A stretch of DNA of 49,108 nt from Bacilli bacterium (GTDB lineage: Bacteria; Bacillota_I; Bacilli_A; RFN20; CAG-826), in NCBI GenBank assembly GCA_024683495.1, contig JAIKYF010000056.1:1-49108 (forward strand), written 5' to 3'. This document shows positions 1,004-36,381 of the stretch, piece after piece. Positions within the stretch are counted from its first letter, which is position 1. Each line of letters opens with the position of its first letter. The notes under the pieces are model-generated. The model saw only the letters and a program-made list of their open reading frames with translations, ran no database searches and was not told the DNA's origin. A program made the position numbers and the translations under genes.

Positions 1004-1012
1004 GAGGCTCCT

Positions 1013-2170
1013 ATGACTTTCCAAAATAACGGCAAAACCAAACTCCTCATCATCGCCGGGACGAGGCCCGAGATCATCCGCCTCGCCGCGGTCATGAAAA
1101 GAAGCCGGGAATATCTAGACACCCTGATCTGCTACACCAACCAGAACTACGATAAGAATCTCTCGACCGTCTTCTGGGAGGATTTTGGCTTGGGCGGACC
1201 GGATATCTTGCTTCATGTCGCCGGCAAAAACCTCGGCGAAACCTGCGCGAACATCATCTCTCAGACCTATGATCTCATGGTGGAAGTCAAACCCGACGCC
1301 GTCTTGGTCTTGGGGGATACCAACTCTTGCCTATCCGCCATCAACGCCAAACGCCTCCACATCCCCTTATTCCATATGGAAGCGGGGAACCGCTGCAAGG
1401 ACGAATGCCTTCCCGAAGAGACCAATAGGAGAATCGTCGACATCATCTCCGATGTCAATCTCCCCTATAGCGAGGCCGCGAGAAGATATCTCATCGAATG
1501 CGGCATGCCCAAAGAAAGAACCTATGTCACCGGCTCCCCGATGGCCGAGGTCCTCACGATGAACCTTGAGCAAATCAAATCCAGCGACGTCCTTAAGCGC
1601 CTAGGCTTAGAAAAAGACCATTACATCCTCCTTTCCGCCCACCGCGAGGAGAATCTCGATAGCGAGAAGAATTTCACCAGCCTCTTCACCGCGATCAACG
1701 CCTTGGCCGAGAAATACGATATGCCAATCCTTTATTCTTGCCATCCTAGAAGCAAGAAGAAACTCGAGGCCTCGGGTTTCAAGCTCGACCCCCGCGTCCG
1801 CGTCAATGAGCCCTTAGGCTTCAACGATTACAATAACCTTCAGATGAATGCCCTCGCGGTCGTCTCCGATTCGGGGACTCTGCCCGAAGAAAGCAGCTTC
1901 TATCTATCCATCGGCCATCCGATCGCCGCGGTCTGCATCAGGACCTCGACCGAGCGCCCGGAAGCCATTGAAGCGGGGGACTTCCTCATCGCCGGCATCA
2001 CCACCGATGAGCTTCTCCAATCCACCGAGATGGCCATTGAGATGAAGCGTAACGGCGTCTTAGGAAAACCCTGCCCCGATTATATCGATACCAGTGTCTC
2101 GATGAAGGTGATCCGCATCATCCAAAGCTACACCAACATCGTCAACCGCATGGTTTGGAGAAAAGACTAA
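1013..2170 (+). CDS. capG: UDP-N-acetylglucosamine 2-epimerase family (non-hydrolysing, CapG/FnlC type)
   Basis: 385 aa. N-terminal LLIIAGTRPEIIRL and HMEAGNR motifs typical of the WecB/epimerase_2 family. SD AGGAGG lies 6 nt upstream of the ATG. Confidence 0.8.
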   Translation: MTFQNNGKTKLLIIAGTRPEIIRLAAVMKRSREYLDTLICYTNQNYDKNLSTVFWEDFGLGGPDILLHVAGKNLGETCANIISQTYDLMVEVKPDAVLVLGDTNSCLSAINAKRLHIPLFHMEAGNRCKDECLPEETNRRIVDIISDVNLPYSEAARRYLIECGMPKERTYVTGSPMAEVLTMNLEQIKSSDVLKRLGLEKDHYILLSAHREENLDSEKNFTSLFTAINALAEKYDMPILYSCHPRSKKKLEASGFKLDPRVRVNEPLGFNDYNNLQMNALAVVSDSGTLPEESSFYLSIGHPIAAVCIRTSTERPEAIEAGDFLIAGITTDELLQSTEMAIEMKRNGVLGKPCPDYIDTSVSMKVIRIIQSYTNIVNRMVWRKD

Positions 2171-2171
2171 G

Positions 2172-3368
2172 ATGAAGATCCTGGTCACCGGCGCCAAAGG
2201 GATGGTCGGAACCTCCCTTTGCCATAACCTAAGAAACATTCTCGAAGGCAAGAATAGGACTCGCCCGAATATCAAAATCGACGAGATCTATGAGTATGAC
2301 ATCGATTCTTCCAAGGAAGATTTAGATAAGTATTGCCAAGACTGCGACTTCGTCTTCAATCTCGCCGGAGTCAACCGCCCGAAGACCCCCGAAGAATTCA
2401 TGGAAGGCAATTTCGGTTTCGCGTCTTTGCTTTTGAATACGTTAAAAAAGCATAACAACAAATGCCCGATCATGCTCTCAAGCTCCATCCAAGCCACCCT
2501 CATCGGCCGTTATGATGGAGAATATGGCAGAAGCAAATTAGCAGGCGAGAAGCTATTCTTCGATTATGCAAAAGAAGTGGGATCTGCCGTGTATATTTAC
2601 CGTTTCCCTAATCTTATGGGCCACTCGAGGCCTAACTATAATTCGGCGGTTTCGACTTTCTGCAACGCCATCGCCAACGACCTTGAATACCACATCTCCG
2701 ATCCTAATGCCGAAGTGGAGCTCCTCTATATCGATGACTTAGTCGAGGGGATGTTTGACCTATTGGAAGGGAAGGAGAATAGATGCGAATTCGAGGGCTT
2801 GACTCCCGTCGAGAAAGAAGATGGCCGTTATTGCTATATCCCCATCACCCATAAGGTGACTCTCGGGAGAATCATCGAATTATTGCTCTCCTTCAAAGAC
2901 CAGCCTCTCAGCCTAATGATGCCGAAGATGCCCAAAGGCTCCTTCGAGAAGAAGCTTTTCTCCTTATATCTAAGCTATCTCCCAAAAGAGAAATTCATCT
3001 ACGCCTTCAAAAGCAACGTCGATGAAAGGGGATCTTTCACGGAACTAGTCCACACCTTGGATTGCGGGCAGATTTCCGTCAATATCTCTAAGCCTGGGAT
3101 AACCAAAGGCAACCATTGGCATAATTCCAAATGGGAACAATTCATTGTCGTCAGCGGGCATGCTCTCATCCAAGAAAGGAACATCACGACCGGCGAATTC
3201 GTCGAATTCGAAGTCTCTGGCGGAAAAATCGAGGCCGTCTATATGATTCCTGGCTGGAGTCACAATATCATCAATCTTTCCAAAACCGAGAATCTTGTGA
3301 CGATCATGACCTGCAACGAAATTTTCGATAAGGATCATCCCGACACCTTCTTTGAAGTGGTGAAATAA
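2172..3368 (+). CDS. capF: CapF/FnlB-like bifunctional reductase/epimerase (N-terminal SDR plus C-terminal cupin)
   Basis: 398 aa. N-terminal KILVTGAKGMVG Rossmann motif; C-terminal cupin-like segment (GSFTEL...KGNHWH...). The start follows the capG stop by 1 nt. Confidence 0.7.
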   Translation: MKILVTGAKGMVGTSLCHNLRNILEGKNRTRPNIKIDEIYEYDIDSSKEDLDKYCQDCDFVFNLAGVNRPKTPEEFMEGNFGFASLLLNTLKKHNNKCPIMLSSSIQATLIGRYDGEYGRSKLAGEKLFFDYAKEVGSAVYIYRFPNLMGHSRPNYNSAVSTFCNAIANDLEYHISDPNAEVELLYIDDLVEGMFDLLEGKENRCEFEGLTPVEKEDGRYCYIPITHKVTLGRIIELLLSFKDQPLSLMMPKMPKGSFEKKLFSLYLSYLPKEKFIYAFKSNVDERGSFTELVHTLDCGQISVNISKPGITKGNHWHNSKWEQFIVVSGHALIQERNITTGEFVEFEVSGGKIEAVYMIPGWSHNIINLSKTENLVTIMTCNEIFDKDHPDTFFEVVK

Positions 3369-10119: not shown

Positions 10120-10211
10120 GGAGACGTACCCAAGAGGCCGAAGGGGGCAGGTTGCTAACCTGTTAGTAGGGCTCTGCCCTAGCAAGGGTTCAAATCCCTT
10201 CGTCTCCGCCA
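10120..10211 (+). tRNA. tRNA-Ser (anticodon GCU), CCA encoded
   Basis: Acceptor GGAGACG/CGTCTCC; anticodon loop TTGCTAA; long variable arm; T arm AAGGG-TTCAAAT-CCCTT; 3' GCCA. Confidence 0.9.
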
Positions 10212-10391
10212 CGATTGATTGTCAAGACACGTACGATAAAGTGCGTGTTTTTTCTTATTTTTAAGCATTTTGCTATATTTGGTCTAGTGAATACAACTTT
10301 AATCATTTTGTAACTGGACACATAAAAACCCCGTGAAAAATCTAGACGGACACAAGGTTTAAATCATATGGCCAGTTTGAATGATGGGACA

Positions 10392-11642
10392 CTAACTAAG
10401 TAAAAACTTTTTTAGTGGAATAACTTTGATTAAAAATCCATCGATTTCAATTATTTTTTCCTCTTCGTAAGTTATAATTATCAAATTGGATTTTGACTGA
10501 TTAGCTTTCGCAAAAGCGATTAAATTATTAACTTCACGATCATAAGCATCTTTTTCATCGATTGAATACGCTACTTGAATTGCGGTATTAAGTTCGGAAA
10601 GATAAAAATCAATATCAGCTTTGTTGCCTTTGAAGTAGTAAAGACAATCTTTGTGAGTTCTATATAAGTGTAGAGCTACTATATTTTCTAATAACGAACT
10701 TCTTTTATTATCTAAGAAAAGGTTTAAAATTCCGTTGTCCATAAAATAATATTTTGGATTGCTATTCTTATCTAAAAAATAAGCACAATAATTTTCTAGT
10801 GTAAACAAGAGAAAAGCATCCTTACAATATCCACAATAATCAATAACTATATCTTTAGATATCTTATATCCTATGCCAGTAATAATATTTTGAATTTTAG
10901 TAAAAGAAAGGTCTTGCTTTACCGATTCAGCAATTTTTTTAATCATCAGTTTGACGCCATTCTCATTTCTTATATTGTTATGAACAATAATATCGTTATA
11001 AAGAACCTTCTGATAAACGTTCGAAACATACTCTCTTTTGTTTTTAAAGCTAACAGATTCGGGGAAACCACCATTAACAAAATAATTATTTAATAAACTA
11101 TTTATTTGTCCAATCTCTTTAACAGAATATCCTTCTTTGTTTGCTTTATTGGCTCTTAAAAACTCATCAAAAGAATACGTCATGATTTCCTTAGAAATGT
11201 ATCTTCCGCCTAGTTTTGCTTCCACTTCTTTTGAGAGCATTTTTGCGTTGCTTCCGGTAATGTCAACTTTATATCCTTGATTTACAATGCGAATGGCAAA
11301 CTTTTCCCAATCATCGATATTTTGAATCTCATCGAAATAGAAATAATGTTTTTTGTTTGATAATTCTTCTGCAACTAAAAGAATGTCATCAAAATCGTTA
11401 GCCGTGAATCCAAGCAATCTTTCGTCATCGAAATTTATATAAATAATTTGATTCCAATCAACACCTTCGTTAATTAATTCTAGCGCTCTTTTATAAAGTA
11501 ATGTTGTTTTGCCTGCTCTTCTTAATCCAACCAAAACATAATTAATATCTTTTTCTAAAACAATATTCCTGTCAATTATCACAGCATCTTTAATAACTTG
11601 ATGTTGATCAAAGATAATTCTTTTTAAAGTTTCACGATTCAT
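10392..11642 (-). CDS. AAA-family ATPase (AAA_14 plus DUF4143-like architecture)
   Basis: 416 aa with Walker A GLRRAGKTT and Walker B-like YFYFDEIQ. Very AT-rich coding sequence, unlike the neighbouring genes. Confidence 0.7.
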   Translation of the reverse strand: MNRETLKRIIFDQHQVIKDAVIIDRNIVLEKDINYVLVGLRRAGKTTLLYKRALELINEGVDWNQIIYINFDDERLLGFTANDFDDILLVAEELSNKKHYFYFDEIQNIDDWEKFAIRIVNQGYKVDITGSNAKMLSKEVEAKLGGRYISKEIMTYSFDEFLRANKANKEGYSVKEIGQINSLLNNYFVNGGFPESVSFKNKREYVSNVYQKVLYNDIIVHNNIRNENGVKLMIKKIAESVKQDLSFTKIQNIITGIGYKISKDIVIDYCGYCKDAFLLFTLENYCAYFLDKNSNPKYYFMDNGILNLFLDNKRSSLLENIVALHLYRTHKDCLYYFKGNKADIDFYLSELNTAIQVAYSIDEKDAYDREVNNLIAFAKANQSKSNLIIITYEEEKIIEIDGFLIKVIPLKKFLLS

Positions 11643-12147: not shown

Positions 12148-12171
12148 AAAGCGCACCAGCCGGTGCGCTTT
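12148..12171 (-). terminator. Rho-independent terminator at the end of the surface-protein operon
   Basis: The minus strand reads AAAGCGCACC-ggct-GGTGCGCTTT followed by CATTTTAG, immediately after the TGA of the 1686-aa gene. Confidence 0.75.
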
Positions 12172-12175
12172 TCTA

Positions 12176-15100
12176 TCATGGAGCGGTTATTGTTCCGTTT
12201 TGATCCATCGTGTAGCCAGAACTGAAGGTAACGATGTTATTGGTTGTGTCAAGTGAATCGGAAGTTCCTAGATCAATGATATTTCCGCTATCATCCAATG
12301 TCCAATAGTAAACCGAGCTGGTGCTTAACAATGCAGCCGGGGAAACATTTGTGTTTACCACGTGGCTCCAATCGTTAACGTAGAACCTGACGTAGCTATT
12401 GAGGTATTGACCGCTCTGCCATTCGAAGACATTCTCATCGATGGTGGTGCTCAAGGTGTAATTTTGATAGGAATAGATTGTTAAACCCAAACCTTGCGTG
12501 CAGCCATCAATAACGCTTTCTTGCCAGTTGTAACTTAATGTGAATCCACTTGGCAGAACTAATGTTGTTAATGACGTGCAATTATCCCAGAATGACCCTT
12601 TCGAATAGTTCTCATTCTTGACGATGTTGCAATTGCCGTTTGAGAAGGTGAAGGATGTTAGGGAGGAATTGTCTCTGAAACAACCGGTGAATAAAGTTAC
12701 ATTACTTCCCTGATACACCACCGAAGTTATAGCGGTGTTTTTGAATGATTCAGTTCCGATCGTAGTCACACTCGCCGGGATAACGATATCCCCGCCTAAC
12801 GATCCGGCTTGCTCAAAAGCATGGGCGTAGATTGTCTGCAATCTGGTGAGGTGCGCAAAATCGAAATTATTGAGGCTGCTGCACTTATAGAAGGCGTTAT
12901 CGTTAATGCCTGTGATCAAGGTGTTGTCTGCATTGTTCTTGGCGGTGAAGGAAGCTAGGCTTGTATCCTCGCTAAAGGCGTATCTGCCTATAGATTTTAC
13001 GTGAGAAGTATATTCGACATTAGTCAAAGATGTGCAATATGCAAAGCAATAATTGGCGAGGTTAATATTTCCTTTACCGTCCTCTGAAGGGAAAACGATG
13101 CTAGTAATCGGATTATTAGCAAAGGAAGATTCCCCTAACTGAATCTCGCTAGTGGTGATATTTGATAAATCAACCGTCTCCAAAGAGTCACAAGAACGGA
13201 AACTTTCCTTGGCAATAACACTGGTTCCGGCCGGGAAGGTAACGCTAGTCAAAGAATCGCAATTATAGAAGGCGGCATCATTAATGGTAACGGTTGCCGA
13301 GGTTGGCCAAGTAATCGAAGATAAGGAAGTGCAGTTCTTGAAGGCACTTGCGTTAATCGTAATCGAGCCGGTTACATTGCTTAAATCGATGCTTGTGAGG
13401 CCTGTACAATCTTGGAATGCTCCAGAACCGATTGTGAAGTTGGCGACATTTGGCGCAGTAAAATTCCTTAAAACCGTATTGTTTTTGAAACAATCACTAC
13501 CGATAGAGGAGTATCCTGTGTAAGTCAAATCGAGAACCCCGGGTTCGGCTATTCTTTCAGATGAAGTGGCGCCTGGAGTAGAATAAGTCATACCTGCAGT
13601 CGTGATGTCGGCAAACAAACCATCGGGAATAGATGCACCCTCATTGTAAGGAAGATTGACATAAGAAAGGATTTCGCAGCCGCTGAAAGCATATTCTGGA
13701 ACGATAAAATTCGTTAGCGATTCAGAACGAAGGTTGCATAAATTGTTCTCATATTGCCTAACCGGCACGTAAAGATAGACGTATGAATCGCTATCTGTGA
13801 CTGCCGTAGAGGTATAAGACTTTCTTGTGGCAATCGCGGAGAATAATGCTTGTGGAATGGTGTTATTGTTCGAATCCTTTGGGAAGGCTCCAAGCGACAA
13901 TTCATCAATCCAATAGCCCATCTTAAAGGCTCCAAACAAAGAAGCGGCTTCTCTATTGTTGGCATTATATGAAGTATATTCGCCGTTAGACCCCCAGACC
14001 GTAACTTCATTAGGAACTGTCCTCCTGAAATCGGCATAGTCCCTATTTAAAACTAACTGTAAGCCAGAAGCGTTCTTGGCAACGGCATCAGTGGAATAAA
14101 GACTGCTCGTGCATGTCTCGCTTGAAGCGTTCGTATAAGTGGAAGTGGTGTAGTATTGGCTTGTGCCATTCGCGAACGTAATCAAACGCAAGTCGATGCA
14201 GTTAGAGAAAACCGAGCCGATCTTGTTTGTGGTATTGGCGCTTGTGTTCTCGTAGAAGATGCAGTTCGAAGGAATGTTGCAAGCCTTTTGCAAACCGCTG
14301 AAAAGGAAAGCGTATTTCCCTATTTCGGTCAATCCGGAAGGGAAGGACCACTCCGACGGAGTATCGTTTCTGGAGTAGGAAGAGATTTTTCTTACACCAT
14401 ATGCCCTAATGAAAGCATATTCACCGATTCTGGTGATAGAGTTCGGCAATATTACTTCTTGTAACTCAGGGTGATTGGCGGCAATCGTTTTGTGATTGTT
14501 GGAATCCCACCCATCAGAAGAGAAGGCGGCTGAGAAAGCTGAGTCTCCGACTTCAGTGACGGTGTAAGTCGTGCCATCTTTAGTGACTGTCTCTGGAATT
14601 TTTGCTGATCCATTGAATGGCAAAGGGGTATTTTCTTCAACTCCGCCATAATCATCTGAATCATAGGAATTTGCCCTATCTCTATCATAAAGATATTTTG
14701 AAAGAATAGCGGTGGCATTGTTTCCAGTTCCTGAGCACACATAGGCACATTGTTCCTCGCGAATTCCATCACGTATAACTAATCTATTTGAATTGCCAGA
14801 ACCAAGAGAAACCGTGACGTTATTGATGCCCTTTGTAGGTTCGTTTATGGTTTCTTCATAATAAATGTTCTCATAGGTCGGCATTATCTGAGAAATGTTG
14901 TAACTGCTGATAAAGCCATTATTTTTCGATGTCGCGCTGCTATTAAAACAATAGCCGATATAGCCCTTGGTAGAAAAGCTCTCGTCGCCGATTGTCCTCC
15001 ATCTATAATTGTCGTTGATAGAAGAGGTGGACATTTCATTTCCATTTTTCCATGTATTGATGACGTTCATTACGTTGGCCTCGCCATTGTAATAGATATT

Positions 15101-17236
15101 GGTTGTTTCGGTGCTCGTTAAATAGAGGGCAGCCCTAGAGTTACCTTGCATAGAATCATATTGGAAGATCAATTTCGTCGATTGATTTGGCAAAATGAGG
15201 TTCTGCAATGCTGGGCCTGGTGCGAAATCGTTATGGTAACGCCCGGCATTAGAACCAACCGCAGGTTCTGACCACTTACCGTTTTCGCAATGGAAGAAGA
15301 TGGATCTCCCGCTTCTTTCCTCACAAATGAGGGTATGAAGATTTTCGCAGAAAGCAAAAGTTTGAATTGGAATGACAAGATTAGCGGTTTCGCTCGTTAC
15401 GTTAGAACCCTTGAAAATGACGGTACCGAGCAATGGGCAATTAGCGAAGAAATGGGCGGCGTATTGCGTGTAGTTAATGCCATCGAATTGGTTGCATATG
15501 CTGCTTGGAATACCGAAATGTGAGAATGTTCTTGGGAAAATGATAGTGGATAATTTATATTTTTCTGTCCCGTCGGTGTTGAAACGACTGTAATGGACTT
15601 TTCTATCAGCAAAGCCGGAGGATCCTCTTCCGTTGCCATAATAGCCCAATCTGTAGAATTGGTCGTGGCCCATAAAGACTAATTGGGATTTCTCGTCGTC
15701 ATAATCCCACCGGAAATCGGTAACGCCGATCATTTCGTTCGTACCTTCATTGCAGAATGCTTGATTACCGATGTATTTTAGGCCATAAGGCAAATGCAAG
15801 TATTTGAAATTTTGCCGATGCGGCGCTTTAGAGAAGGCGAAATCGCAAACTATTTCCAAATCGGTTAAGTCGGAAAGATCCACGCGGCTAAGGACTTCCA
15901 TCGATCCGGTTTCATCCGTTTTGCAGTCATTTATCGTTGGTACATCAACGACCACATTAGAATCGATGACTGTACAGTTGTTGAATCCGTCAAAGAAGCT
16001 GTTTTCTATCCGCCTTAAAGTGGTTGGCAGATATATGCGCCGAATGCTGCCTTTTATATCATTTAAGGCAGTTTGTGCGATTACTCTGACCTTGTTCTTT
16101 GGCTCGGTGATAGGTAGGTTATCAGGTATGGCCAAAAAGGTTACATTGCTAGTGGACCCAACGTATTTAGTGATGGTGACGTCATTAAATTCCCCGTTGG
16201 CGGTAACGGTGTATTCCCAGTCTTCATTACGATAGGAACCGCCGCTAATTAGCGTGTAATTACCATTCACATAATAGTTATTGGCGGCATTAGAGGGGTT
16301 ATCGCGGTCCTTATGCCATCCCCAGAGTGAATTATTGCCTGTTCCGTACCAAGTCGAGAAGTCGCTGCTTGAAGCGGAGAAGTAGAATTGAAGGCTGCTG
16401 CTGCAATAGTTAAAGGCATGTGGCTCAATCACGCCGTCGGAATCGAAGAAAATCTTTGGAATGAAGATTTTGGTAAGGCTTGTGCATCCTTGGAATGCTC
16501 TAGCGCGAATCGTCGTGATGGATTGGAAAGAAAGCATTGTTGAGAAACTAGAGCACCCATTGAAGGCTTCATAATCAATGATCTCAACCGCGGTTGGAAG
16601 ATACACGTTCTGCAAGGCCTTGCAGTTAAGGAAACAGAAAGCCGGAATCTTTCTAAGCGTCGAAGAAATGATGTCTTCGGTGCTTGGAGCGGAAACGGTA
16701 CAGGTATTTAAGGCGGACGTGCTTGTCGCGGATTTGTTGCTATTTTGGATATTGACGGTGGTCAGGCTCGTGCAGGAATAGAAAGCTGCCTCCCCGATTG
16801 ATTCGACGGTATAGGGGATGGTGATAGTTCTGATTCTGCTATAGATAAAAGCTTCATAGTCTATAACGCAAATTTTGGTGCTGAGAGTAATCGTGCTGAC
16901 ATAGAGATCTTGGAATCCGTTTCTCCAGATGCAAGTTACATCCTTTCCGTTATAGGTCGAAGGAACGGTCAAATTATTGCCGAAGTTAAATCCTCTTTTA
17001 TCTTCAGCCAAAGCGACAGCATATGTATTGGCATAAGTGCCAGATGAAATTAGATAATAAGAGAAATTCCCAGAAGTATCTTCATAATTACCTTCGATAA
17101 GATAATGTGGTTCGTTCTTTATCGGATCAAAAGCCCTATAAGTCGAGGCTCCTGTATCCGAACAGGAATAGTTAAGAGGAAGCATAACAAAAAGCAACGC
17201 TAGCATCTTAAGTTTTTCAAATAGTGCTTTTTTCAT
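12176..17236 (-). CDS. giant BspA-type leucine-rich-repeat surface protein (operon gene 4)
   Basis: 1686 aa. N-terminal signal peptide with a possible, non-canonical lipobox (LPLNYSC). Many LRR_5-like units (e.g. IPYTVESIGEAAFYSCTSLTTVNI, ...IGSGAFQDCTGLTSIDL, ...INASAFKNCTSLSSITW). No LPXTG. SD GGAGGAAAAAGA directly precedes the ATG. Confidence 0.8.
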   Translation of the reverse strand: MKKALFEKLKMLALLFVMLPLNYSCSDTGASTYRAFDPIKNEPHYLIEGNYEDTSGNFSYYLISSGTYANTYAVALAEDKRGFNFGNNLTVPSTYNGKDVTCIWRNGFQDLYVSTITLSTKICVIDYEAFIYSRIRTITIPYTVESIGEAAFYSCTSLTTVNIQNSNKSATSTSALNTCTVSAPSTEDIISSTLRKIPAFCFLNCKALQNVYLPTAVEIIDYEAFNGCSSFSTMLSFQSITTIRARAFQGCTSLTKIFIPKIFFDSDGVIEPHAFNYCSSSLQFYFSASSSDFSTWYGTGNNSLWGWHKDRDNPSNAANNYYVNGNYTLISGGSYRNEDWEYTVTANGEFNDVTITKYVGSTSNVTFLAIPDNLPITEPKNKVRVIAQTALNDIKGSIRRIYLPTTLRRIENSFFDGFNNCTVIDSNVVVDVPTINDCKTDETGSMEVLSRVDLSDLTDLEIVCDFAFSKAPHRQNFKYLHLPYGLKYIGNQAFCNEGTNEMIGVTDFRWDYDDEKSQLVFMGHDQFYRLGYYGNGRGSSGFADRKVHYSRFNTDGTEKYKLSTIIFPRTFSHFGIPSSICNQFDGINYTQYAAHFFANCPLLGTVIFKGSNVTSETANLVIPIQTFAFCENLHTLICEERSGRSIFFHCENGKWSEPAVGSNAGRYHNDFAPGPALQNLILPNQSTKLIFQYDSMQGNSRAALYLTSTETTNIYYNGEANVMNVINTWKNGNEMSTSSINDNYRWRTIGDESFSTKGYIGYCFNSSATSKNNGFISSYNISQIMPTYENIYYEETINEPTKGINNVTVSLGSGNSNRLVIRDGIREEQCAYVCSGTGNNATAILSKYLYDRDRANSYDSDDYGGVEENTPLPFNGSAKIPETVTKDGTTYTVTEVGDSAFSAAFSSDGWDSNNHKTIAANHPELQEVILPNSITRIGEYAFIRAYGVRKISSYSRNDTPSEWSFPSGLTEIGKYAFLFSGLQKACNIPSNCIFYENTSANTTNKIGSVFSNCIDLRLITFANGTSQYYTTSTYTNASSETCTSSLYSTDAVAKNASGLQLVLNRDYADFRRTVPNEVTVWGSNGEYTSYNANNREAASLFGAFKMGYWIDELSLGAFPKDSNNNTIPQALFSAIATRKSYTSTAVTDSDSYVYLYVPVRQYENNLCNLRSESLTNFIVPEYAFSGCEILSYVNLPYNEGASIPDGLFADITTAGMTYSTPGATSSERIAEPGVLDLTYTGYSSIGSDCFKNNTVLRNFTAPNVANFTIGSGAFQDCTGLTSIDLSNVTGSITINASAFKNCTSLSSITWPTSATVTINDAAFYNCDSLTSVTFPAGTSVIAKESFRSCDSLETVDLSNITTSEIQLGESSFANNPITSIVFPSEDGKGNINLANYCFAYCTSLTNVEYTSHVKSIGRYAFSEDTSLASFTAKNNADNTLITGINDNAFYKCSSLNNFDFAHLTRLQTIYAHAFEQAGSLGGDIVIPASVTTIGTESFKNTAITSVVYQGSNVTLFTGCFRDNSSLTSFTFSNGNCNIVKNENYSKGSFWDNCTSLTTLVLPSGFTLSYNWQESVIDGCTQGLGLTIYSYQNYTLSTTIDENVFEWQSGQYLNSYVRFYVNDWSHVVNTNVSPAALLSTSSVYYWTLDDSGNIIDLGTSDSLDTTNNIVTFSSGYTMDQNGTITAP

Positions 17237-17247
17237 TCTTTTTCCTC

Positions 17248-20200
17248 CTAATAAGTATAAGTTATGACGTCATCGGTACTACTGGCAGCCCCGAATAATG
17301 ATATTGATGTATTAACCAATCCTGGCAATGTCTCACTATGCGTTCGGCCATAGTTATTGACTGAGATGTGAGTCATCTTGGAGAGGTCTGTGGTAGTTAT
17401 CTTGAAGATATTGTCCTCGTATTTGAAACTGATATCTGATGTATCTGCCGCAAAGAGCGAACGATCTGAGTTAGTGAGCATGACATAGCAGCGTTGATTA
17501 TCCAAACGTGGATCATCGGCATCATACGTGGAGGCGTCACCTAAGGTGATGTTTGTCGTGGTGGTGCCAGTTCCGGAATCGTATGTGAAGCGCTCTTGCT
17601 TCGTAAAGTCGACGTTTCGGACCACGTCGTTGCTGGCATAGGTGTTATCGATGAACTCCAATTGACCATCATTTTGGCCCTGAGCGCAAACATAGAAGAT
17701 TTTCGCAATGCCCAATGATCCTGACGCGCCATTTCCCGGACCGGTTGCCGAACCAAGGCAATAGCGTCCTTGCGGAAGTTTGAATGTATGGGCGAATAAG
17801 CGGGTTTTGCCCGAGGTATATCCATATTCGCTGCCATAAGAGTATGTCTTCGGCATCGTCGCATCGATGGTGTTATTGGAACTGGTGATTTCCGTGAAAG
17901 TGGATCCGTCGTTATTGTAAACGCCAACATGTCCTGTTGATAATGAGCCATAGTAGGTGGTCTTGTAGTCAAAATAAGCTAAGTGATCATCTGTAGGCAT
18001 GAAGAATGCGTAATCTGGAGATTCGAAATCCTTATCGATATATCTCGCGGGCGCAGTCCCTTTGTATAAGGAATCATCATCGATTTTATAGACGCCTAGT
18101 GCCGCCGGTTTAGAGGTGTCAACCAGTCCTGCGACGACGGTGACATTGGCATAGGCGGTTTTAATCTCAAAATTGACCATGTTCGCGGCAGGGTTATTAT
18201 GTTCCTCGCTTTCCACGCAATACATATAGGTTCGGCTTTGATCGCCATAATGAGATAAGTTAGGAGTGGCGAAACTCGCGGAAAGAGAAGTGATTTCTTT
18301 GCCGTAGACGTTTCTTAACATGACACCGGATTTGGCGTTATTCTTTGGAATCGGATCGCCATTCTGGTCGATTAATTTGTAATAGAAATAGTTAGATAAG
18401 AACGATCCGCCGGGAGTGCTGGTGTCAACATCCGAGAAATAGAAAGACTTTGCCGCCCTTTGGGCATCTAATGGGAATCTAAAGAAGTAGTTTTGCCTCC
18501 ATTCACGGTAGGCGAAGACATCTGAGGATATCTCATCATATGATGGCAAATGGTGGCCCAAATAGAAATCGCTTGGGCTGTCGGAATTGAAAGAATCGCG
18601 ATATTTGGAGAAGGCGATGCCTGAATTGGCATCATATTCGCCAGTCGCATAATATAGATAGTAGCGGTCGTTATCATCGACGTCTTTAGCGGTGACATCT
18701 TCAGTGGAAACCAACGATTTGTCGATAGCGGAATAGACGTCGGCTTCGACGTGGTTGCCAGAAGAGTCGGTGGCGATGGTGAAAACGCCTAGGTCTTTAT
18801 TGGAGATAACCTTGTTTCCCCTGAAAGAAACCGTATCTTCCTCTTTAGTTACGTATTGCTTGACCTGGGATCCTCCGCTTTCGATATATCTATAACGGAG
18901 ATATTCAAGATATTTGCTTGTAGAAATCGGGGTATAGGAAATGGCGCTTCCATTATTCAAGGATTCCGAATTCGAGAAGGAGGAGGAGTTGATGACGTCA
19001 TTATAGACGGTCGTAAAGTCCAAAACGCCGATATCCTTACCGGTTTTAGTAGCGGCATCGGCTTCAAGGGCGGCAAGGTTATTAACGGTGTTGCCAGTTA
19101 AACCGATTAGGCCTAAGCTCGAGGCATTCTCTAGTGCATTATATGTATCGGCTAAGCCGGTGATATTCTCGCCATCATTCATTTTGAACGAGCCTTTATA
19201 AACATAGCAATCATGCAAAGATCCGTCGCAATGGCCAATCACTAAACCGATGTTGTTGGAATGACCCAACCCTAACGTCGTTTCCATGGAAATGGCGGTG
19301 CTGTTGATAGATTCTAAAGTGAAAAGGAAACTGAGGGTCAGCAATACTTTGGTATGCTCCAAACCATGGGAATCGGTTACGGAAGCGATTAGAGAGACGC
19401 TTGTCGAGGATTGAAGCGGGAATTCAACCCCTTCAAGATCCCTTTTGTCACCGAAAAGGGAGAAAATGTTGTCGGTATTTGGAGTTATGACCCCGTTGCT
19501 TTCGCTGATGAGGTTCCCGGAAATTAGGGTTTTATACTTATATCCATCGTTGTTTGGGTAGGAATAAGTGACTTGAGGAATCGTGGCTTCTCCATCATAT
19601 GTAAAATTTTCGGTGGAAACCGCGTTGAAAATCATATAGCCATAATTGTCGACGCTTTTACTGAAGGTGATTTCGTTGTCGCTGACTGAGGTATCGGGGT
19701 CGTAGGTGTAAGAAACGCCATTGGCTAAAGTGCTTGACGGACCATATAGACCAACATAGTCATCGGTATAGCCTAAGGTATTTATCGTCACATTGCTTAA
19801 GAATAGGTCGTGAACGAGCGAGCCATGCGCGGTATAGCCGAATAAGCCGGCATCTTCTGGGTCGGCATAGACGTTTAGGTTCTTGATTTCCAAACTCTGC
19901 CCGTCGAATTCCCCATAGAATGGCAATGATTCAGAGCCAATCGCGTTGATTGGGTTATTCGTATATGTCGAAGTCGACATGTCGAGGAATGGAACGGTCG
20001 TCATGGATGAGTCATTGAGGTAGCATAACGGCCCGGCTGAAGGATCGGCCCCATTTAGTTCCTCTAAACCGAGTTGGAAATAGGTTTTCGCGCCGAAAAC
20101 GCCTAAACCTTGAAGTCTAGACAAGTTATACATGTGGCGGGGTCTAGTGATGACGTATGGATTCTCTTCCGTTCCGGCGCCGGTCTCAAAATATGAACGC

Positions 20201-20337
20201 AAGGCAACTTGGCCATATGAGCCATTGCTGGAGGCGTATTTCACATAAACCGATAAAGTGGTGGTAATCGCGATCGCCCCGGCCGATATGGCGACCAACG
20301 CGGCTTCTATCCAGAGGAATGCTTTCAATTTCTTCAT
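17248..20337 (-). CDS. large secreted or N-terminally anchored surface protein, possible beta-helix (operon gene 3)
   Basis: 1029 aa with one N-terminal TM/signal segment. GTEENPYVITRPRHMYNL and DAGLFGY..GSLVHDLFLSNVTI resemble the entry and a GLUG-like turn of beta-helical adhesins; this reading is weak. No LPXTG. Confidence 0.6.
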   Translation of the reverse strand: MKKLKAFLWIEAALVAISAGAIAITTTLSVYVKYASSNGSYGQVALRSYFETGAGTEENPYVITRPRHMYNLSRLQGLGVFGAKTYFQLGLEELNGADPSAGPLCYLNDSSMTTVPFLDMSTSTYTNNPINAIGSESLPFYGEFDGQSLEIKNLNVYADPEDAGLFGYTAHGSLVHDLFLSNVTINTLGYTDDYVGLYGPSSTLANGVSYTYDPDTSVSDNEITFSKSVDNYGYMIFNAVSTENFTYDGEATIPQVTYSYPNNDGYKYKTLISGNLISESNGVITPNTDNIFSLFGDKRDLEGVEFPLQSSTSVSLIASVTDSHGLEHTKVLLTLSFLFTLESINSTAISMETTLGLGHSNNIGLVIGHCDGSLHDCYVYKGSFKMNDGENITGLADTYNALENASSLGLIGLTGNTVNNLAALEADAATKTGKDIGVLDFTTVYNDVINSSSFSNSESLNNGSAISYTPISTSKYLEYLRYRYIESGGSQVKQYVTKEEDTVSFRGNKVISNKDLGVFTIATDSSGNHVEADVYSAIDKSLVSTEDVTAKDVDDNDRYYLYYATGEYDANSGIAFSKYRDSFNSDSPSDFYLGHHLPSYDEISSDVFAYREWRQNYFFRFPLDAQRAAKSFYFSDVDTSTPGGSFLSNYFYYKLIDQNGDPIPKNNAKSGVMLRNVYGKEITSLSASFATPNLSHYGDQSRTYMYCVESEEHNNPAANMVNFEIKTAYANVTVVAGLVDTSKPAALGVYKIDDDSLYKGTAPARYIDKDFESPDYAFFMPTDDHLAYFDYKTTYYGSLSTGHVGVYNNDGSTFTEITSSNNTIDATMPKTYSYGSEYGYTSGKTRLFAHTFKLPQGRYCLGSATGPGNGASGSLGIAKIFYVCAQGQNDGQLEFIDNTYASNDVVRNVDFTKQERFTYDSGTGTTTTNITLGDASTYDADDPRLDNQRCYVMLTNSDRSLFAADTSDISFKYEDNIFKITTTDLSKMTHISVNNYGRTHSETLPGLVNTSISLFGAASSTDDVITYTY

Positions 20338-20348
20338 ATCTTCATTCC

Positions 20349-21812
20349 TCAGCTTTCTAACACCTGCGTGCCAGTGAAATATAAACCGAAATCACGATCG
20401 ATCATGTAAGTTTTTCCCAATCGGCCGGCGTGGAGGAAATAATTCGCATGGGTGTGATCGTAATCAATCGCGACATAGCAATGATAGACTCTGGTGTCAT
20501 TTAAGGGATTATAGGTTGATAAATCCGCGGTCATCGGCGGGATGATCAAAGAATCGCCATCTTCTTTGGTCCTCAGATTGCAGGTTGTGGTATAGCCTTC
20601 TCCGCTGAATTTATCGAAATAGGCGACGCTTTCGTCATCGACGGCGTTGGTTTTCTTATGGAGGGCCGTCCAAGCGGCCGAAGCGCTGTCAAATGGCGTG
20701 GCGGTGAATAAGGAATGATAGGCGTAGAAATCAGATGCTCTTAATGCGTTTCTATGAGCCTCATCGACATAGCCGGTGAGATTGGCGGTGCCGTCATTAT
20801 AATCGACGCCAGCGGTGTTGTATAAGCGCATGATGTTTAGTCCGGCGCGGATTTCGCTGACGTTTTTATAAGCGAGCTCAACATCGAGGATGACCATGGT
20901 GTTCTGAGATTGGACCGCGGTTGGGACGTAATCGACGATGGTGGGATATAAGGTTTTATCGGCTTGGCCATAATATTCGAGGTTGATCATGGTCGGGTCG
21001 AGAATATTACTGCCGATGATAGCTTCGTCATTTCTGCTATAGAGGTTGATTTCAATCCTATCGCTATAATAGCTGATCGTGTAAATGCCGGTCTTTAGGC
21101 ACTTTATCGTATTATTCTCGGTGATTTCGAAACGGCTGGTCTCAGAATCCAAAGAAGAATAGGTAAGGTAATTCGCGTGGGAACTGTCAGTGATTTTGTT
21201 GGTATCGAATAAGGAAAATTCCGCGCCGACGGGGATGACGACGTTGCTGACTGAGGAGCAAACTGTGGTGCTGACGGCATTGGTGTTAGACATGGCGATG
21301 GCATGGTCGCAAGACCAGACCGTCGAAGCGTCTTCGCCAGTGAAAACGGCATCGCCGATCAAATAATATTTGAAGGTCTCTTCGGCGCTATAGACGATAT
21401 TGTTCACTGTCCCGGTGCCGGAGGATTGATAGGTGTGGGAGACCTCTTCCCCAAGAGTGATGACCACATTATCGGTGGAGGTATTCCTATCAGAATAGTT
21501 GGCGTCTTCGGTCACGATCTTCTTAACGACCCCAGCCCCATCGTAATTGATGAATTCCGTGGTGTTCTTGTAATAGGGGTAGACATATTTAAGAGCTGAG
21601 ACTTTCTTGACAAAAACGTTCAAATCGCCGGCGACGGCGTTGATCTTCGGGCTCTTGGTGGTCACGGTGATCCAAGCGAAGGTGGCAAAACCGGCGGTGG
21701 AGATGGCTCCAACCGCGACAATGGACAAAATGGCGATCTTCTTCATGCCGCCCTTGCCTTCTTTACTCTCACGCTTAACGACGCGCTTCAACGTTTCAAA
21801 GAATCTGCCCAT
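20349..21812 (-). CDS. secreted protein with TasA/camelysin-type (SipW-cognate-like) signal peptide (operon gene 2)
   Basis: Likely start is ATG 21812 (MGRFFETLK...), with GGAG 9 nt upstream; the track starts at TTG 21827. Basic N-terminus, then a TM helix, then GFATFAWITVTTKSPKINAVAGDLNV. This parallels the GT(F/Y)A(Y/W)F..T....N.f.aGtLdl motif of TasA-family signal peptides. Confidence 0.6.
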   Translation of the reverse strand: MGRFFETLKRVVKRESKEGKGGMKKIAILSIVAVGAISTAGFATFAWITVTTKSPKINAVAGDLNVFVKKVSALKYVYPYYKNTTEFINYDGAGVVKKIVTEDANYSDRNTSTDNVVITLGEEVSHTYQSSGTGTVNNIVYSAEETFKYYLIGDAVFTGEDASTVWSCDHAIAMSNTNAVSTTVCSSVSNVVIPVGAEFSLFDTNKITDSSHANYLTYSSLDSETSRFEITENNTIKCLKTGIYTISYYSDRIEINLYSRNDEAIIGSNILDPTMINLEYYGQADKTLYPTIVDYVPTAVQSQNTMVILDVELAYKNVSEIRAGLNIMRLYNTAGVDYNDGTANLTGYVDEAHRNALRASDFYAYHSLFTATPFDSASAAWTALHKKTNAVDDESVAYFDKFSGEGYTTTCNLRTKEDGDSLIIPPMTADLSTYNPLNDTRVYHCYVAIDYDHTHANYFLHAGRLGKTYMIDRDFGLYFTGTQVLES

Positions 21813-21816
21813 CGTT

Positions 21817-22647
21817 TTATGCTCCAACCGTGAATGCCAGGCTGCTTAAGGAAAGGGTTTCATAGCAATTGCTATTGCCGGAGATATCTTTCTCATAGTA
21901 GCCGGTCGACTCGTTATATGTATAGAAAGTACCGCTATCGTTAGAGAATTCGATAGTGAGGAAAAGAACGCAGCGCTGCAAAGAAGGATTGAAAGAGGGG
22001 AAGCTATTGAAAATAGTTGCCGTTTGGGCAGGAACTGCCGGAGCGGTGGACGTAAAAGCATCGGTTAAGCCCTCTTGGATCCGATATGATTGATAAGCGG
22101 TGGCGATGTCGGTGAGGACATTCTCGGTGCTGGTGACGGCATAGGCATAGCCGTACATATTGATGGCCCACGATAATTTGACCGTTGTCGAAGAGTTGAT
22201 CTTAATATCTTCATCCGCGTTTTCCGACCAAGAATCCAAAGTGAACTTGGTGGGAGTGCCTTCGGTGATGACCATGGCATAAGTCAATTTATGGGCTGGC
22301 CAGAGTTGATCGATGGCTAATGGGTTGTCCGCTCCATCGACGGTCCCGCTTTCGTTGAGGGTGACCGCTTGGAAAGTGGCGGAAGCATAGGATTTCTCGT
22401 ATCCGGAATACTTGGAGACGTAGCTATTGTAATTGCCATCTTTAGTGGTTTCGTTGTCGGTGAATTTCCTGAGGTAGTAGAAATCGAATCCCACGCCATT
22501 GGCGCCGGCGAGTTCGATGGTATTGACGGTGACTCTGGAAGTGCGGGTGGTGGCGAACCAAGCGAAAGTGGCCATGCCTAAAGAAGCGAAGGTCACACTG
22601 GAACCTGCGATGAAGAAGAAAATTCTTTTTAACAGTTTCTTGTTCAT
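21817..22647 (-). CDS. secreted protein with TasA/camelysin-type (SipW-cognate-like) signal peptide (operon gene 1)
   Basis: 276 aa. The N-terminus MNKKLLKRIFFFIAGSSVTFASLGMATFAWFATTRTSRVTVNTIELAG matches the same motif. Its C-terminal beta-strand pattern resembles gene 2, so the two may be paralogues. Confidence 0.6.
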   Translation of the reverse strand: MNKKLLKRIFFFIAGSSVTFASLGMATFAWFATTRTSRVTVNTIELAGANGVGFDFYYLRKFTDNETTKDGNYNSYVSKYSGYEKSYASATFQAVTLNESGTVDGADNPLAIDQLWPAHKLTYAMVITEGTPTKFTLDSWSENADEDIKINSSTTVKLSWAINMYGYAYAVTSTENVLTDIATAYQSYRIQEGLTDAFTSTAPAVPAQTATIFNSFPSFNPSLQRCVLFLTIEFSNDSGTFYTYNESTGYYEKDISGNSNCYETLSLSSLAFTVGA

Positions 22648-22708
22648 AGCGTTCAGCTAAATAAAATAGCCCGTCCTCCTTACCAAGTTAACTTCCAGAA
22701 AGTCTATT

Positions 22709-22786
22709 CTGTTGGTAACTGGCTATCCGAGGCCCGGACCCTTTAGCTTTGCGTCACTCAGTTGCCCGAGTTTTGCTTTTCACACT
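22709..22786 (-). promoter_or_regulatory. c-di-GMP-I (GEMM-I)-like riboswitch aptamer
   Basis: Minus-strand RNA: GUGUGAAAAGCAAAACUCGGGCAACUGAGUGACGCAAAGCUAAAGGGUCCGGGCCUCGGAUAGCCAGUUACCAACAG. It has a GCAAA element, a hairpin ACUCGG-[GCAA]-CUGAGU with a GNRA loop, the hallmark ACGCAAAGC, and a second hairpin GCUA-AAGGG-UCCG[GGCCU]CGGA-UAGC. The 3' GCCAGUUACC resembles the Vc2-type GGGGUUACC. Confidence 0.75.
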
Positions 22787-22789
22787 GGT

Positions 22790-22795
22790 ATTATA
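22790..22795 (-). promoter_or_regulatory. -10 box TATAAT upstream of the riboswitch
   Basis: The minus strand reads GCGTATATAATACCAGTGTG, placing TATAAT about 4-10 nt upstream of the aptamer 5' end. No clear -35. Confidence 0.4.
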
Positions 22796-23100: not shown

Positions 23101-24084
23101 TTAAATTGACAGATTGGTGGCCAATTGTCTCAAATTCTCATTTGATAAGAGTCTATCGATATCTTTAAGGGATTCGATGGTTTCTTTTTTATAATGGTCA
23201 TGAAGAGAATTGATTAATCGGTCTTCGAATTCTTTTCCCTTCCTTTTTTCGAATGTGGAAGTCAGTTCCTCATAGATCAAAATCAATAAGGCCCGACGGA
23301 GCATGATGAGGATGCTTTCCTCGATCCAATAAGCGAATTTAGTGTGAGGGAGATTCTTTTCCAAAGGCTTCATTTTTAGATAGAGCGGCAAGGCATCTAA
23401 AGGCTGGCGGTAGATATCGACAAAAGCAAAATCCGCGGCAAATCCCCCTTCTTTTAATAAATCGAAGGCGTCTTTCTCTATGATTTTGATTTTTTCTTTA
23501 TGAGGGAAATGGGGCAATAGATGCTCCTTGAATAGGCCAATGATCTCTTTTTCCTTTTCGATGATTATGACTTCTTTAACCTCGGGCTTATTGGAAATCA
23601 TGAATTGGTAATAACCCATCCCCAAGCCAAAGACCAAGACTACGCCTTTCGCCTCTCTGATGGGGTTTTCCATCGTATTGATCTCATGTGGGGTGACGCT
23701 CATCCAGATGAAATCACTTTCCATGAGGCAGGGGTAGGGGAATTCGTTCTCAAAATACCCTAAGTCCGTCACCTCTTTGTAGTTTTCTTCTTTTACGACT
23801 TTGAATTCATCCTTCAAGAAGACTTGTCTTGGGGCATAATATCTTTCGCAAAGCTGATATTTCCCCATCTTCCCTTTTATCTTATCACACAAAAGATAAT
23901 AGGGATTTGCGCGGAATTTTTCTTCTTTTAGAGGTGTTGCATATTCTTGGATGATCTCTAAAGGGAGCTCTTCTTCATAATGAATCAGCTCATTAAGATA
24001 GTCAGCGAAGCCGATATTGTCATCGAGCTGATTGATGTATCCTTCTAAAGCATCTAGGGTCTTTTTGTTACATTTGTTTTCCAT
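23101..24084 (-). CDS. spermidine-synthase-fold / class I SAM-dependent methyltransferase-like protein
   Basis: 327 aa. VVLVFGLGMGYY...VKEVIIIEKEKEII...IEKDAFDLL...FAFVDIY follows the aminopropyltransferase/MTase fold pattern. Confidence 0.4.
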   Translation of the reverse strand: MENKCNKKTLDALEGYINQLDDNIGFADYLNELIHYEEELPLEIIQEYATPLKEEKFRANPYYLLCDKIKGKMGKYQLCERYYAPRQVFLKDEFKVVKEENYKEVTDLGYFENEFPYPCLMESDFIWMSVTPHEINTMENPIREAKGVVLVFGLGMGYYQFMISNKPEVKEVIIIEKEKEIIGLFKEHLLPHFPHKEKIKIIEKDAFDLLKEGGFAADFAFVDIYRQPLDALPLYLKMKPLEKNLPHTKFAYWIEESILIMLRRALLILIYEELTSTFEKRKGKEFEDRLINSLHDHYKKETIESLKDIDRLLSNENLRQLATNLSI

Positions 24085-35956: not shown

Positions 35957-36381
35957 AGCCCCGTAGCCAAGAGACTATCTCCTATACGATGTCCCGCATC
36001 AAAGGCAAGGACACCACGATCGAAGTCAAACTCCGCAAAGTCCTCTATCAGAAGGGCTATCGCTATCGCTGCAACAGCAAATACATTTTCGGCCACCCCG
36101 ATATATCCTTCAAAGGCTATAAAGTGGTGGTCTTCTGCGATTCGGAATTCTGGCATGGCTATAATTTCGAGGAGAATAAGGAGAAGATCCATTCCCACAC
36201 CGACTATTGGATTCCGAAGATCGAAAGAAACATCGCTAGAGACAAAGAGGTCAATGAGCGTCTTACTAAAGAAGGTTATACGATCATCCGTTTCTGGGGC
36301 AATGAGATCAATAAGAATCTCGATGAATGCGTGAAGAAAGTGGAAGAAGCCTTGAAAGAGAAAGGCTATCCAAACATATAA
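35953..36381 (+). CDS. vsr: very-short-patch repair endonuclease
   Basis: 142 aa. SRIKGKDTTIE, GHPDISFKGYKVVVFCDSEFWHG, WIPKIERNIARD and IIRFWGNEI match Vsr. ATGA overlap with the upstream lipoprotein gene. Confidence 0.85.
   Translation: MKPRSQETISYTMSRIKGKDTTIEVKLRKVLYQKGYRYRCNSKYIFGHPDISFKGYKVVVFCDSEFWHGYNFEENKEKIHSHTDYWIPKIERNIARDKEVNERLTKEGYTIIRFWGNEINKNLDECVKKVEEALKEKGYPNI

Follow-up and report, generated by a model that had tools for sequence, protein, structure and literature searches.

Positions 12176-22647 of a contig from a Bacilli bacterium (JAIKYF010000056.1, assembly GCA_024683495.1) raise the question of whether four adjacent genes behind a single riboswitch encode a dedicated surface structure, and if so, of what kind. 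The whole stretch of DNA analysed, 49,108 nucleotides (nt) in length, is referred to here as the window. A first-pass annotation of the sequence had proposed a surface fibre and adhesin system controlled by c-di-GMP (cyclic diguanosine monophosphate), and its account of the layout was borne out: four coupled genes, all on the minus strand, lie between one riboswitch leader and one terminator. Gene 1 (21817-22647; 276 amino acids, aa) encodes a T-x-A-W-F leader followed by a predicted beta-sandwich body. Gene 2 (20349-21812, 487 aa) has a long basic N-region, a T-x-A-W-(F/I) leader and an invariant (S/A)GDL motif; its open reading frame (ORF) from TTG covers 20349-21827, the ATG at 21812 being the likely start, which gives the same 487 aa as the database protein P0038. 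Gene 3 (17248-20337, 1029 aa) combines one N-terminal hydrophobic helix with a large conserved ectodomain, and gene 4 (12176-17236, 1686 aa) encodes a BspA-type leucine-rich-repeat (LRR) protein with a probable lipoprotein signal (LPLNYS-C). The intergenic gaps are 4, 11 and 11 nt, with the Shine-Dalgarno-like sequences GGAG, GAGGAA and AGGAGG at the three junctions. The operon is closed by an intrinsic terminator at 12148-12171 (minus strand), a 10-pair stem with six G-C pairs followed by CATTTTAG; the terminator scan gave just one other minus-strand hairpin in the operon region, a weak 5-pair match within gene 4. A tentative -10-like hexamer, TATAAT, was read by eye at 22790-22795 (minus strand), 3 nt upstream of the aptamer and with a weak -35 sequence, and was not listed by a consensus promoter scan.

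The same gene order was found in at least 23 further fetched loci with varying flanking genes (cassettes in L001-L007, L010-L012, L014-L020, L026-L028 and L032), the homologues measuring 269-316, 396-651, 1008-1088 and 1584-3155 aa by position in the cassette, the last being LRR_5 proteins. The genome matches came from rumen metagenome-assembled genomes (MAGs) labelled Bacilli, Erysipelotrichaceae or Bacillales, and one more locus came from a Hadza human-gut metagenome. The neighbours differ by locus (secE/nusG, smpB, tRNAs, ABC transporters, mreB and others), and the recurrence of one order among unlike flanking genes argues that the cassette is not a chance cluster. The riboswitch travels with it. 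In 21 of the 22 testable loci, the window and 20 others, the gene 1 homologue has an aptamer directly upstream; L019 alone has none, and L008, the sequence of which is cut off, lies outside this count. Gene 3 is the most conserved member at ∼50% identity, genes 1 and 2 are ∼40% identical to their homologues, and gene 4 is variable in length. Database searches returned 37 clusters for the gene 1 family at first search and 377 representatives by full profile search, 63 clusters for the gene 2 family and more than 230 for the gene 3 family; the contigs of distant gene 1 relatives were too short to give useful gene context. The homologues are all unnamed or 'hypothetical', and almost none carries a precomputed Pfam domain. 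We regard it as very probable that the four genes are a conserved riboswitch-controlled surface operon, and this operon is probably an adhesion or fibre module.

Aptamers also precede T-x-A-W-F paralogue clusters (L021, L024) and two-gene variant cassettes at L015 5265-9696, L018 4680-9196 and L028 3117-6931 (minus strand), each variant cassette with its own riboswitch. The variants encode a 251-265 aa T-x-A-W-F protein and a 1013-1251 aa protein in which a T-x-A-W-F leader is fused to a gene 3-like N-terminal domain.

Genes of this kind might alternatively be cargo of a mobile element or phage, for example tail fibre or receptor-binding genes, or surface genes juxtaposed by chance. Gene 4 is matched by LRR-containing PHROG families of unknown function, the operon is closely followed by a patch of 30.8% GC content that holds an AAA_14/DUF4143 gene and a tRNA, and a phage-type integrase fragment flanks the L028 cassette. 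However, genes 1-3 have no PHROG match and no viral structural match was obtained with the gene 2 model, the GC content of the cassette equals that of the window, and more than 20 loci repeat the order, the gaps and the riboswitch with housekeeping genes such as secE, nusG, smpB, tRNAs and mreB as neighbours. We consider such an origin highly improbable.

The riboswitch aptamer, at 22711-22787 on the minus strand, belongs to the GEMM-I (c-di-GMP-I) class (Rfam RF01051), with a score of 56 bits against a gathering score of 35 and a span of model positions 1-87, and is separated by 63 nt from the ATG of gene 1. Its expression platform (22658-22740, minus strand) consists of a long terminator-like hairpin and then AUUUUAUUUA. 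Left unconstrained, the leader folded in silico at -43.7 kcal/mol, with a long hairpin at 22668-22740 running into AUUUUAUUUA; with the aptamer enforced the fold came to -32.5 kcal/mol and the U-tract was left without an abutting hairpin. The 5' arm of the predicted terminator hairpin is made up of both strands of aptamer helix P3. Terminator and aptamer would thus be mutually exclusive, and ligand binding should prevent termination, so that these predicted structures make an ON switch the likely direction. Cleaner terminators of the same design were present in the L003, L007, L013, L015b, L017, L018b, L021 and L024a leaders, that of L017 reading AGCCAGCUGCC...GGCGACUGGCU and then UUUUU. Translational control by sequestration of a Shine-Dalgarno sequence was also considered and set aside; the AGGAGG of the leader lies 28 nt from the ATG, and a transcriptional mechanism is therefore preferred.

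The first-pass annotation had named c-di-GMP as the signal. Its aptamer class stands, but the ligand may be c-di-GMP, 3',3'-cyclic GMP-AMP (cGAMP, also written c-GAMP) or both. In the aptamer Vc2, G20 touches one guanine of c-di-GMP (PMC6140456), and the window aptamer does not have this c-di-GMP-specifying G: both the Rfam alignment and the MAFFT column of 28 related aptamers from L001-L028 place an A there. Among the 28, upstream of orthologous or paralogous operons, A occupies this column in 20 and G in 8. The window aptamer has GAUAGCC and GACGCAAAGC, both of which are kept across the related aptamers, so that the ACGCAAA core and the counterpart of Vc2 C92, the partner of the second guanine, are in place, the assignment of this C being our own reading of the consensus. 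An A at Vc2 position 20 defines the c-GAMP riboswitches; Vc2 G20A binds c-GAMP with a dissociation constant (KD) of 120 nM and c-di-GMP with one of 53 nM, and the Clostridium beijerinckii Cbe 1-2 aptamer is bispecific for the same two ligands (PMC6140456). The A20 of the window aptamer is therefore a c-GAMP or bispecific signature, and the label 'c-di-GMP' needs qualification.

It follows that the switch might sense 3',3'-cGAMP, or both dinucleotides equally, and that the operon might belong to a cGAMP or mixed regulon. This reading draws on the A20 of the window and of most related aptamers, together with the dual binding of Vc2 G20A and Cbe 1-2. Against it, eight orthologous leaders keep G20 before the same operon, related loci have EAL phosphodiesterase genes beside their SipW-like genes, binding of c-di-GMP is retained by A20 RNAs (PMC6140456) and a cGAMP synthase was not seen within the ∼20 kb visible per genome. 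That one orthologous operon is preceded by A20 leaders in some loci and by G20 leaders in others points to c-di-GMP as the common signal, and the EAL genes point the same way. On balance we think a cGAMP or mixed regulon rather unlikely and hold with fair assurance to c-di-GMP as a ligand, although the A20 aptamer may also accept 3',3'-cGAMP.

Several related leaders depart from that of the window in architecture. Long leaders, with ∼100 nt between aptamer and gene 1, were seen in L004, L005, L006, L009, L010, L011, L012, L014, L015, L018 and L027. In these the aptamer 3' strand (GAUAGCCAGCAACC) leads into a strong hairpin and U-tract, and further 3' there is a second copy of the aptamer 3' strand (GACAGCCAGUUGCC) with a second hairpin and U-tract; in L009 and L014 both copies were covered by Rfam as one 126-nt aptamer with an insertion. 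The long leaders may be a two-terminator platform, or a platform with two alternative 3' halves. Tandem c-di-GMP-I aptamers stand before the two-gene variant cassette of L028 (6957-7113, minus strand), the aptamer at L015 5163-5237 scores as the c-di-GMP-I-GGC variant (RF03167), and that at L026 7187-7266 has the GGCACA...GGGUCGCAAA core of the same variant.

The second part of the question concerns what the operon makes. In both gene 1 and gene 2 a basic stretch opens the protein, a hydrophobic helix comes next and ATFAWF or ATFAWI follows it, and the parallel drawn in the first-pass annotation with the SipW-type signals of TasA and CalY held at the level of this pattern. When the two families were aligned, 33 leader columns matched and nothing else did (hhalign probability 95%, E 1.8e-8). 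A (G/A)-T-x-A-W-F sequence after a hydrophobic helix was found in 64 leader-bearing ORFs across the loci, the motif scan having returned two clear false positives besides; its A and W do not vary, and its T is strongly conserved. The small residues at -3 and -1 of T-x-A↓W-F (the arrow marks the putative cut) fit a cleavage site. The cut-site motifs of TasA (GGGTWA↓AFND) and CalY (GGTFA↓FFSD) lie in register with (G/A)T(F/L/Y)A↓WF here, and as in TasA and CalY a hydrophobic helix and G-T-x-A precede an aromatic residue and F. TasA has ASGTLDL 15 residues after its cut, and gene 2 has its invariant (S/A)GDL(N/D)V 16 residues past the putative one. These features make a SipW-type leader on genes 1 and 2 plausible.

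Similarity beyond the pattern was sought with family models. The NCBIfam leader model TIGR04088 recognized the leaders of TasA (41.1 bits) and CalY (48.6 bits) above its cut-off of 19; the scores of a paralogue leader from L024 (14.2 bits) and of the gene 1 homologue of L017 (10.5 bits) fell below the cut-off, with no other NCBIfam model reported for either. Neither TIGR04088 nor PF12389 (Peptidase_M73), both proposed earlier as tests of kinship with TasA, matched the two window proteins. Genes 1 and 2 gave no match in Pfam or NCBIfam at E up to 1, none of 76 diverse gene 1 family members matched PF12389, and sequence-profile searches of the PDB with the gene 1, broad gene 1 and gene 2 alignments yielded nothing meaningful. 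Comparison with B. subtilis TasA by hhalign produced non-significant colinear matches in the leader (E 0.13) and in an L-x-P-G..T motif (E 0.1); the N-terminal 70 residues of the TasA sequence used are recognized as TasA by NCBIfam.

The predicted structures gave a similar picture. The AlphaFold2 (AF2) model of gene 1 (mean predicted local distance difference test, pLDDT, 75; predicted template modelling score, pTM, 0.74) shows a disordered leader and a beta-sandwich, and its best match among 350,542 PDB chains was the TasA fibre 8aur_A, at an E of 8.9e-3, a probability of 0.33 and a template modelling (TM) score of 0.19-0.22, which is not significant. The gene 2 model (pLDDT 80.8) has its leader as one long helix, and Foldseek searches of the PDB and BFVD with it returned no significant match. 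The structural likeness to TasA or camelysin expected at the outset was thus not significant for gene 1 and absent for gene 2. Residues 257-263 of gene 1, GNSNCYE, are invariant or nearly so and hold the single conserved cysteine of its family.

A leader of the SipW type would call for a matching peptidase. As noted in the first-pass annotation, the window holds neither a sortase nor a SipW-like gene: among 34 window ORFs scanned with Pfam, none had a sortase, S26 peptidase, GGDEF or EAL domain, and blastp and an SMxP motif scan found no SipW-like or S26-type protein. GGDEF motifs were absent from all fetched ORFs. SipW-like genes were, however, found near T-x-A-W-F-leader genes in three related loci, L023, L024 and L007, those of L023 and L024 matching NF046067 at E 1e-13 to 1e-18. 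In L024 the riboswitch at 13048-13132 leads a single compact series of genes, 10-21 nt apart. First come a 284 aa membrane protein and two T-x-A-W-F proteins, then a membrane AAA_5-like protein and a 468 aa protein, and after these the SipW-like peptidase (NF046067, E 1.4e-18; TIGR02228, 51.9 bits against a cut-off of 51.85) and a membrane protein; the final gene runs off the locus end and is presumed by analogy with L023 to be an EAL gene. In L023, two SipW-like genes are interspersed with T-x-A-W-(F/Y) genes, and behind the second comes an EAL protein (PF00563, E 3.8e-71). L007, which carries a canonical cassette, has a divergent SipW-like gene followed by an EAL gene assigned by homology, and a gene for a 1046 aa EAL-containing protein 3-9.4 kb upstream of the riboswitch; the SipW-like gene lies 8.5 kb upstream of the cassette, and the EAL gene is 36% identical to that of L023. 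The association is evidence that the T-x-A-W-F leader has a SipW-type partner, and suggests that this partner is itself tied to c-di-GMP turnover. We lean, by a little, towards SipW-type processing of the gene 1 and gene 2 leaders.

Larger clusters in distant relatives (L024 13048-20816 and L023 811-9785) hold several T-x-A-W-F paralogues, one or two SipW-like peptidases and an EAL phosphodiesterase, and also a membrane AAA_5-like protein (59% identity between the loci), a 468-709 aa partner and a nucleosidase-like gene. Each may be a dedicated assembly and regulation locus.

The remaining two proteins are far larger. Gene 3 had no Pfam, NCBIfam or PDB sequence match; the GLUG repeat (PF07581) suggested earlier also failed at E up to 1, and the GLUG-type, beta-helix-like pattern (GTEENPYVITRPRH..., FDGQSLEIKNLNV, AGLFGYTAHGSLVHDLFLSNVTIN, IGLVIGHCDGSLHDCYVY) is one seen by eye alone. 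Its only hydrophobic window is at residues 4-32, and many residues are invariant in the family. Gene 4 was earlier read as a BspA-type LRR adhesin, and its LRR identity is clear: PF13306 (LRR_5) matched at E 1.6e-77 over six stretches, with 258 bits against a gathering score of 27.7. The HupY/LrrG model NF047961 matched at E 1.4e-23, and the 83 bits obtained against an equivalog cut-off of 1250 indicate that gene 4 is not a HupY orthologue. The N-terminal LPLNYS-C is non-canonical against the lipobox [LVI][ASTVI][GAS]C; the gene 4 homologues mostly have canonical lipoboxes (AGAAC, AVAC, GVSC, ATGC, LAAC, LISC), and gene 4 is probably a lipoprotein, judging from these N-termini. None of the four proteins has an LPXTG-like motif or a C-terminal hydrophobic segment, as first described, but anchors do exist at the other end, and the gene 4 lipoprotein signal and the gene 3 helix imply proteins that are anchored or anchorable by their N-termini.

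Two further candidates from these proteins were rejected. An S-x-a-l-y sequence of gene 3 lies in register with T-x-A-W-F, and with an hhalign probability of ∼2% no sharing of the gene 1 and gene 2 leader by gene 3 is claimed. Database proteins P0146, P0159, P0209 and P0216 (1521-1568 aa) join gene 2 to gene 3; these entries run through the gene 2 stop and retain the internal start and helix of gene 3, and as probable gene-calling artefacts they were not accepted as evidence of fusion. In one joined entry (...HRES-Q-GMKMNKQ...), L006 has a stop at the junction, and an artefact or a stop-codon variant is probably likelier than a true fusion. Gene 3 also holds GHCDG (residues 368-372) and CAQGQ (884-888), both invariant or nearly so. 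Conserved lone cysteines in exported proteins could serve metal binding or covalent cross-links.

The N-terminal helices allow for a membrane-tethered adhesin complex that is not a fibre, T-x-A-W-F being an uncleaved signal anchor or a juxtamembrane motif, with genes 1-3 held by their helices and joined by the gene 4 lipoprotein in a coat or heteromeric complex for adhesion, induced by the cyclic dinucleotide. A single hydrophobic segment, at the N-terminus, is the sole anchor in each of genes 1-3, the gene 2 leader is one long helix in its model, homology to TasA is undetectable, no SipW gene is present in the window or adjoins most cassettes, and the most conserved protein is gene 3, not gene 1. 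An uncleaved anchor is harder to reconcile with the invariant A and W, the strongly conserved T and the small -3 and -1 residues, with the register of the motif against the TasA and CalY cleavage sites, with the SipW-like genes inside the T-x-A-W-F strings of L023 and L024, and with TIGR04088 as the sole, if sub-threshold, model match for two family leaders. We consider the tethered complex a minority possibility.

The explanation that we prefer overall, with moderate confidence, is a self-contained four-gene surface module of uncultured rumen and gut Bacilli, switched by a cyclic dinucleotide. Without ligand the leader RNA would fold into the terminator hairpin, using the 3' half of the aptamer. 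High cyclic dinucleotide, most probably c-di-GMP, would stabilize the aptamer and allow read-through, and the four proteins would be made together. Genes 1 and 2 would be exported and their leaders cut after T-x-A by a SipW-type (archaeal or endoplasmic reticulum-type) peptidase, which we infer to be encoded elsewhere in the genome. Gene 1 is the candidate repeating subunit, and its freed N-terminal segment might assemble in the fashion of TasA or might just mark the mature end. Gene 2, with the same N-terminal segment and an unrelated body, is a candidate TapA-like partner or nucleator acting with gene 1. Gene 3 would be kept in the membrane by its N-terminal helix, and gene 4, as a giant LRR lipoprotein, would supply binding surfaces.

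A number of results weigh against this explanation. Gene 1 has no obvious Shine-Dalgarno sequence, the AGGAGG 28 nt from its ATG being part of the leader terminator hairpin; that hairpin is long and irregular in the window, with G-U pairs beside the U-tract; and A20 makes the ligand uncertain. The window leaders of genes 1 and 2 gave no TIGR04088 match even at E up to 10, the mature proteins have no significant sequence or profile similarity to TasA or Peptidase_M73, the structural match of gene 1 to TasA is weak (TM about 0.2) and gene 2 has none, and the 49-kb window has no SipW, GGDEF or EAL gene. The formation of a TasA-like fibre is accordingly doubtful, and a fibre scaffold that displays giant adhesins, as the first-pass annotation envisaged, is speculation.

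A wider reading, which we put forward tentatively and hold to be improbable rather than probable, is that the T-x-A-W-F proteins are a new, Pfam-invisible branch of SipW-processed filaments assembled by donor strands, with cyclic-dinucleotide wiring at two levels. If this were true, gene 1 would serve as subunit, with gene 2 in the role of a TapA-like nucleator, and gene 3-type giants, sometimes leader-bearing (L015, L018, L028), would build into or anchor a filament that presents LRR adhesins. ON riboswitches, many of them A20 and possibly bispecific, would control the structural genes, and the SipW-like gene would be paired with an EAL gene.

SipW-dependent fibres are already known (PMC9674648, PMC7395162, PMC9245690). 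By leader pattern the nearest relatives of the module are the tapA-sipW-tasA operon of B. subtilis, CalY/camelysin of B. cereus, BsaA of C. perfringens and the archaeal bundling pili. TasA and TapA have the N-terminal donor-strand region alone in common, both are cut by SipW, and TapA is the proposed donor of the first strand (PMC9674648). Genes 1 and 2 resemble this pair, being in one operon with an N-terminal segment as their sole shared part; the gene 1 model is, like TasA, a beta-sandwich, with the TasA fibre as its best, non-significant, PDB match; and SipW-like peptidase genes accompany the family as in tapA-sipW-tasA, but in related loci. Unlike TasA, the mature proteins have no detectable Peptidase_M73 homology and the leader falls under the TIGR04088 cut-off. 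Unlike tapA-sipW-tasA, operon and window have no sipW, there are two extra giant proteins, control is by riboswitch and not by SinR or a two-component system, and any fibre is putative.

Surface genes under riboswitch control include CD2831, CD3246, pilA1 and B. thuringiensis Bc2-cap. The control of adhesins and pili by c-di-GMP riboswitches is known in Clostridioides and Bacillus, and the C. difficile regulon has been described (PMC6200980). As in that regulon, a GEMM-type 5' leader here couples a cyclic dinucleotide to surface adhesion proteins by way of a terminator and antiterminator. The C. difficile-type adhesins are either type IV pilins or LPXTG proteins anchored by sortase, whereas the present operon has no LPXTG motif, sortase or pilin, and has new protein families and an A20-variant aptamer. 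The aptamer has the same fold as the GEMM-Ib c-GAMP and bispecific riboswitches (Geobacter Gs1761, Clostridium beijerinckii Cbe 1-2), with A at Vc2 G20; it differs from them in host lineage and target genes, and in that orthologous leaders mix A and G. Gene 4 resembles the BspA-type LRR adhesins HupY/LrrG of group B Streptococcus in its six LRR_5 stretches and the partial match to their model, but is far larger, has a lipoprotein-type N-terminus and holds a fixed fourth place in a cassette.

The earlier view that the arrangement was not a described system agrees with our literature searches, which gave no description of it, nor of any link between the TasA/TapA principle and a cyclic-dinucleotide riboswitch, and with homologues that are all without names. 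What appears to be new is the combination of riboswitch and putative SipW-type leader, together with the three unannotated families, the constant presence of a giant LRR lipoprotein in the cassette, the SipW-like/EAL gene pairing and the A/G variation at aptamer position 20. The Bacilli of rumen and gut that are known only from MAGs are abundant and uncultured, and the cassette offers a concrete attachment module under second-messenger control, three of its four proteins belonging to families that have no Pfam, NCBIfam or PDB relative. If the leader is truly SipW-type, the TasA/TapA assembly principle would reach well past the recognized families and would be tied for the first time to a cyclic-dinucleotide riboswitch. 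The orthologous leaders with A or G at position 20 provide a natural series for GEMM-I ligand specificity.

Other features of the window lie outside the operon. Just downstream of its terminator the low-GC patch, at 10120-11642 (30.8% against ∼46% elsewhere), contains an AAA_14/DUF4143 ATPase gene (10392-11642, minus strand) and a tRNA (10120-10208, plus strand), and may be a small inserted element. Directly upstream of the riboswitch promoter region is a 327 aa ORF (23101-24084, minus strand) with no Pfam match and a weak PHROG methyltransferase match (E 1.9e-9), which probably forms a transcription unit of its own. The plus-strand pair at 35177-36381 consists of a 259 aa ORF that has no Pfam match and a Vsr-type very-short-patch mismatch endonuclease (35953-36381) that overlaps its end, and the two may be a remnant or partner of a cytosine methyltransferase/restriction system. 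An ORF of at least 1408 aa (44884-49107, plus strand) is cut by the end of the window; membrane helices are present at its N-terminus, its one match is a faint one to Colicin_V, and no domain is significant. The left window end (119-3368, plus strand) carries capsule or polysaccharide-type genes, including a CapD-like Polysacc_synt_2 gene, a UDP-GlcNAc 2-epimerase and an epimerase with Polysacc_synt_C.

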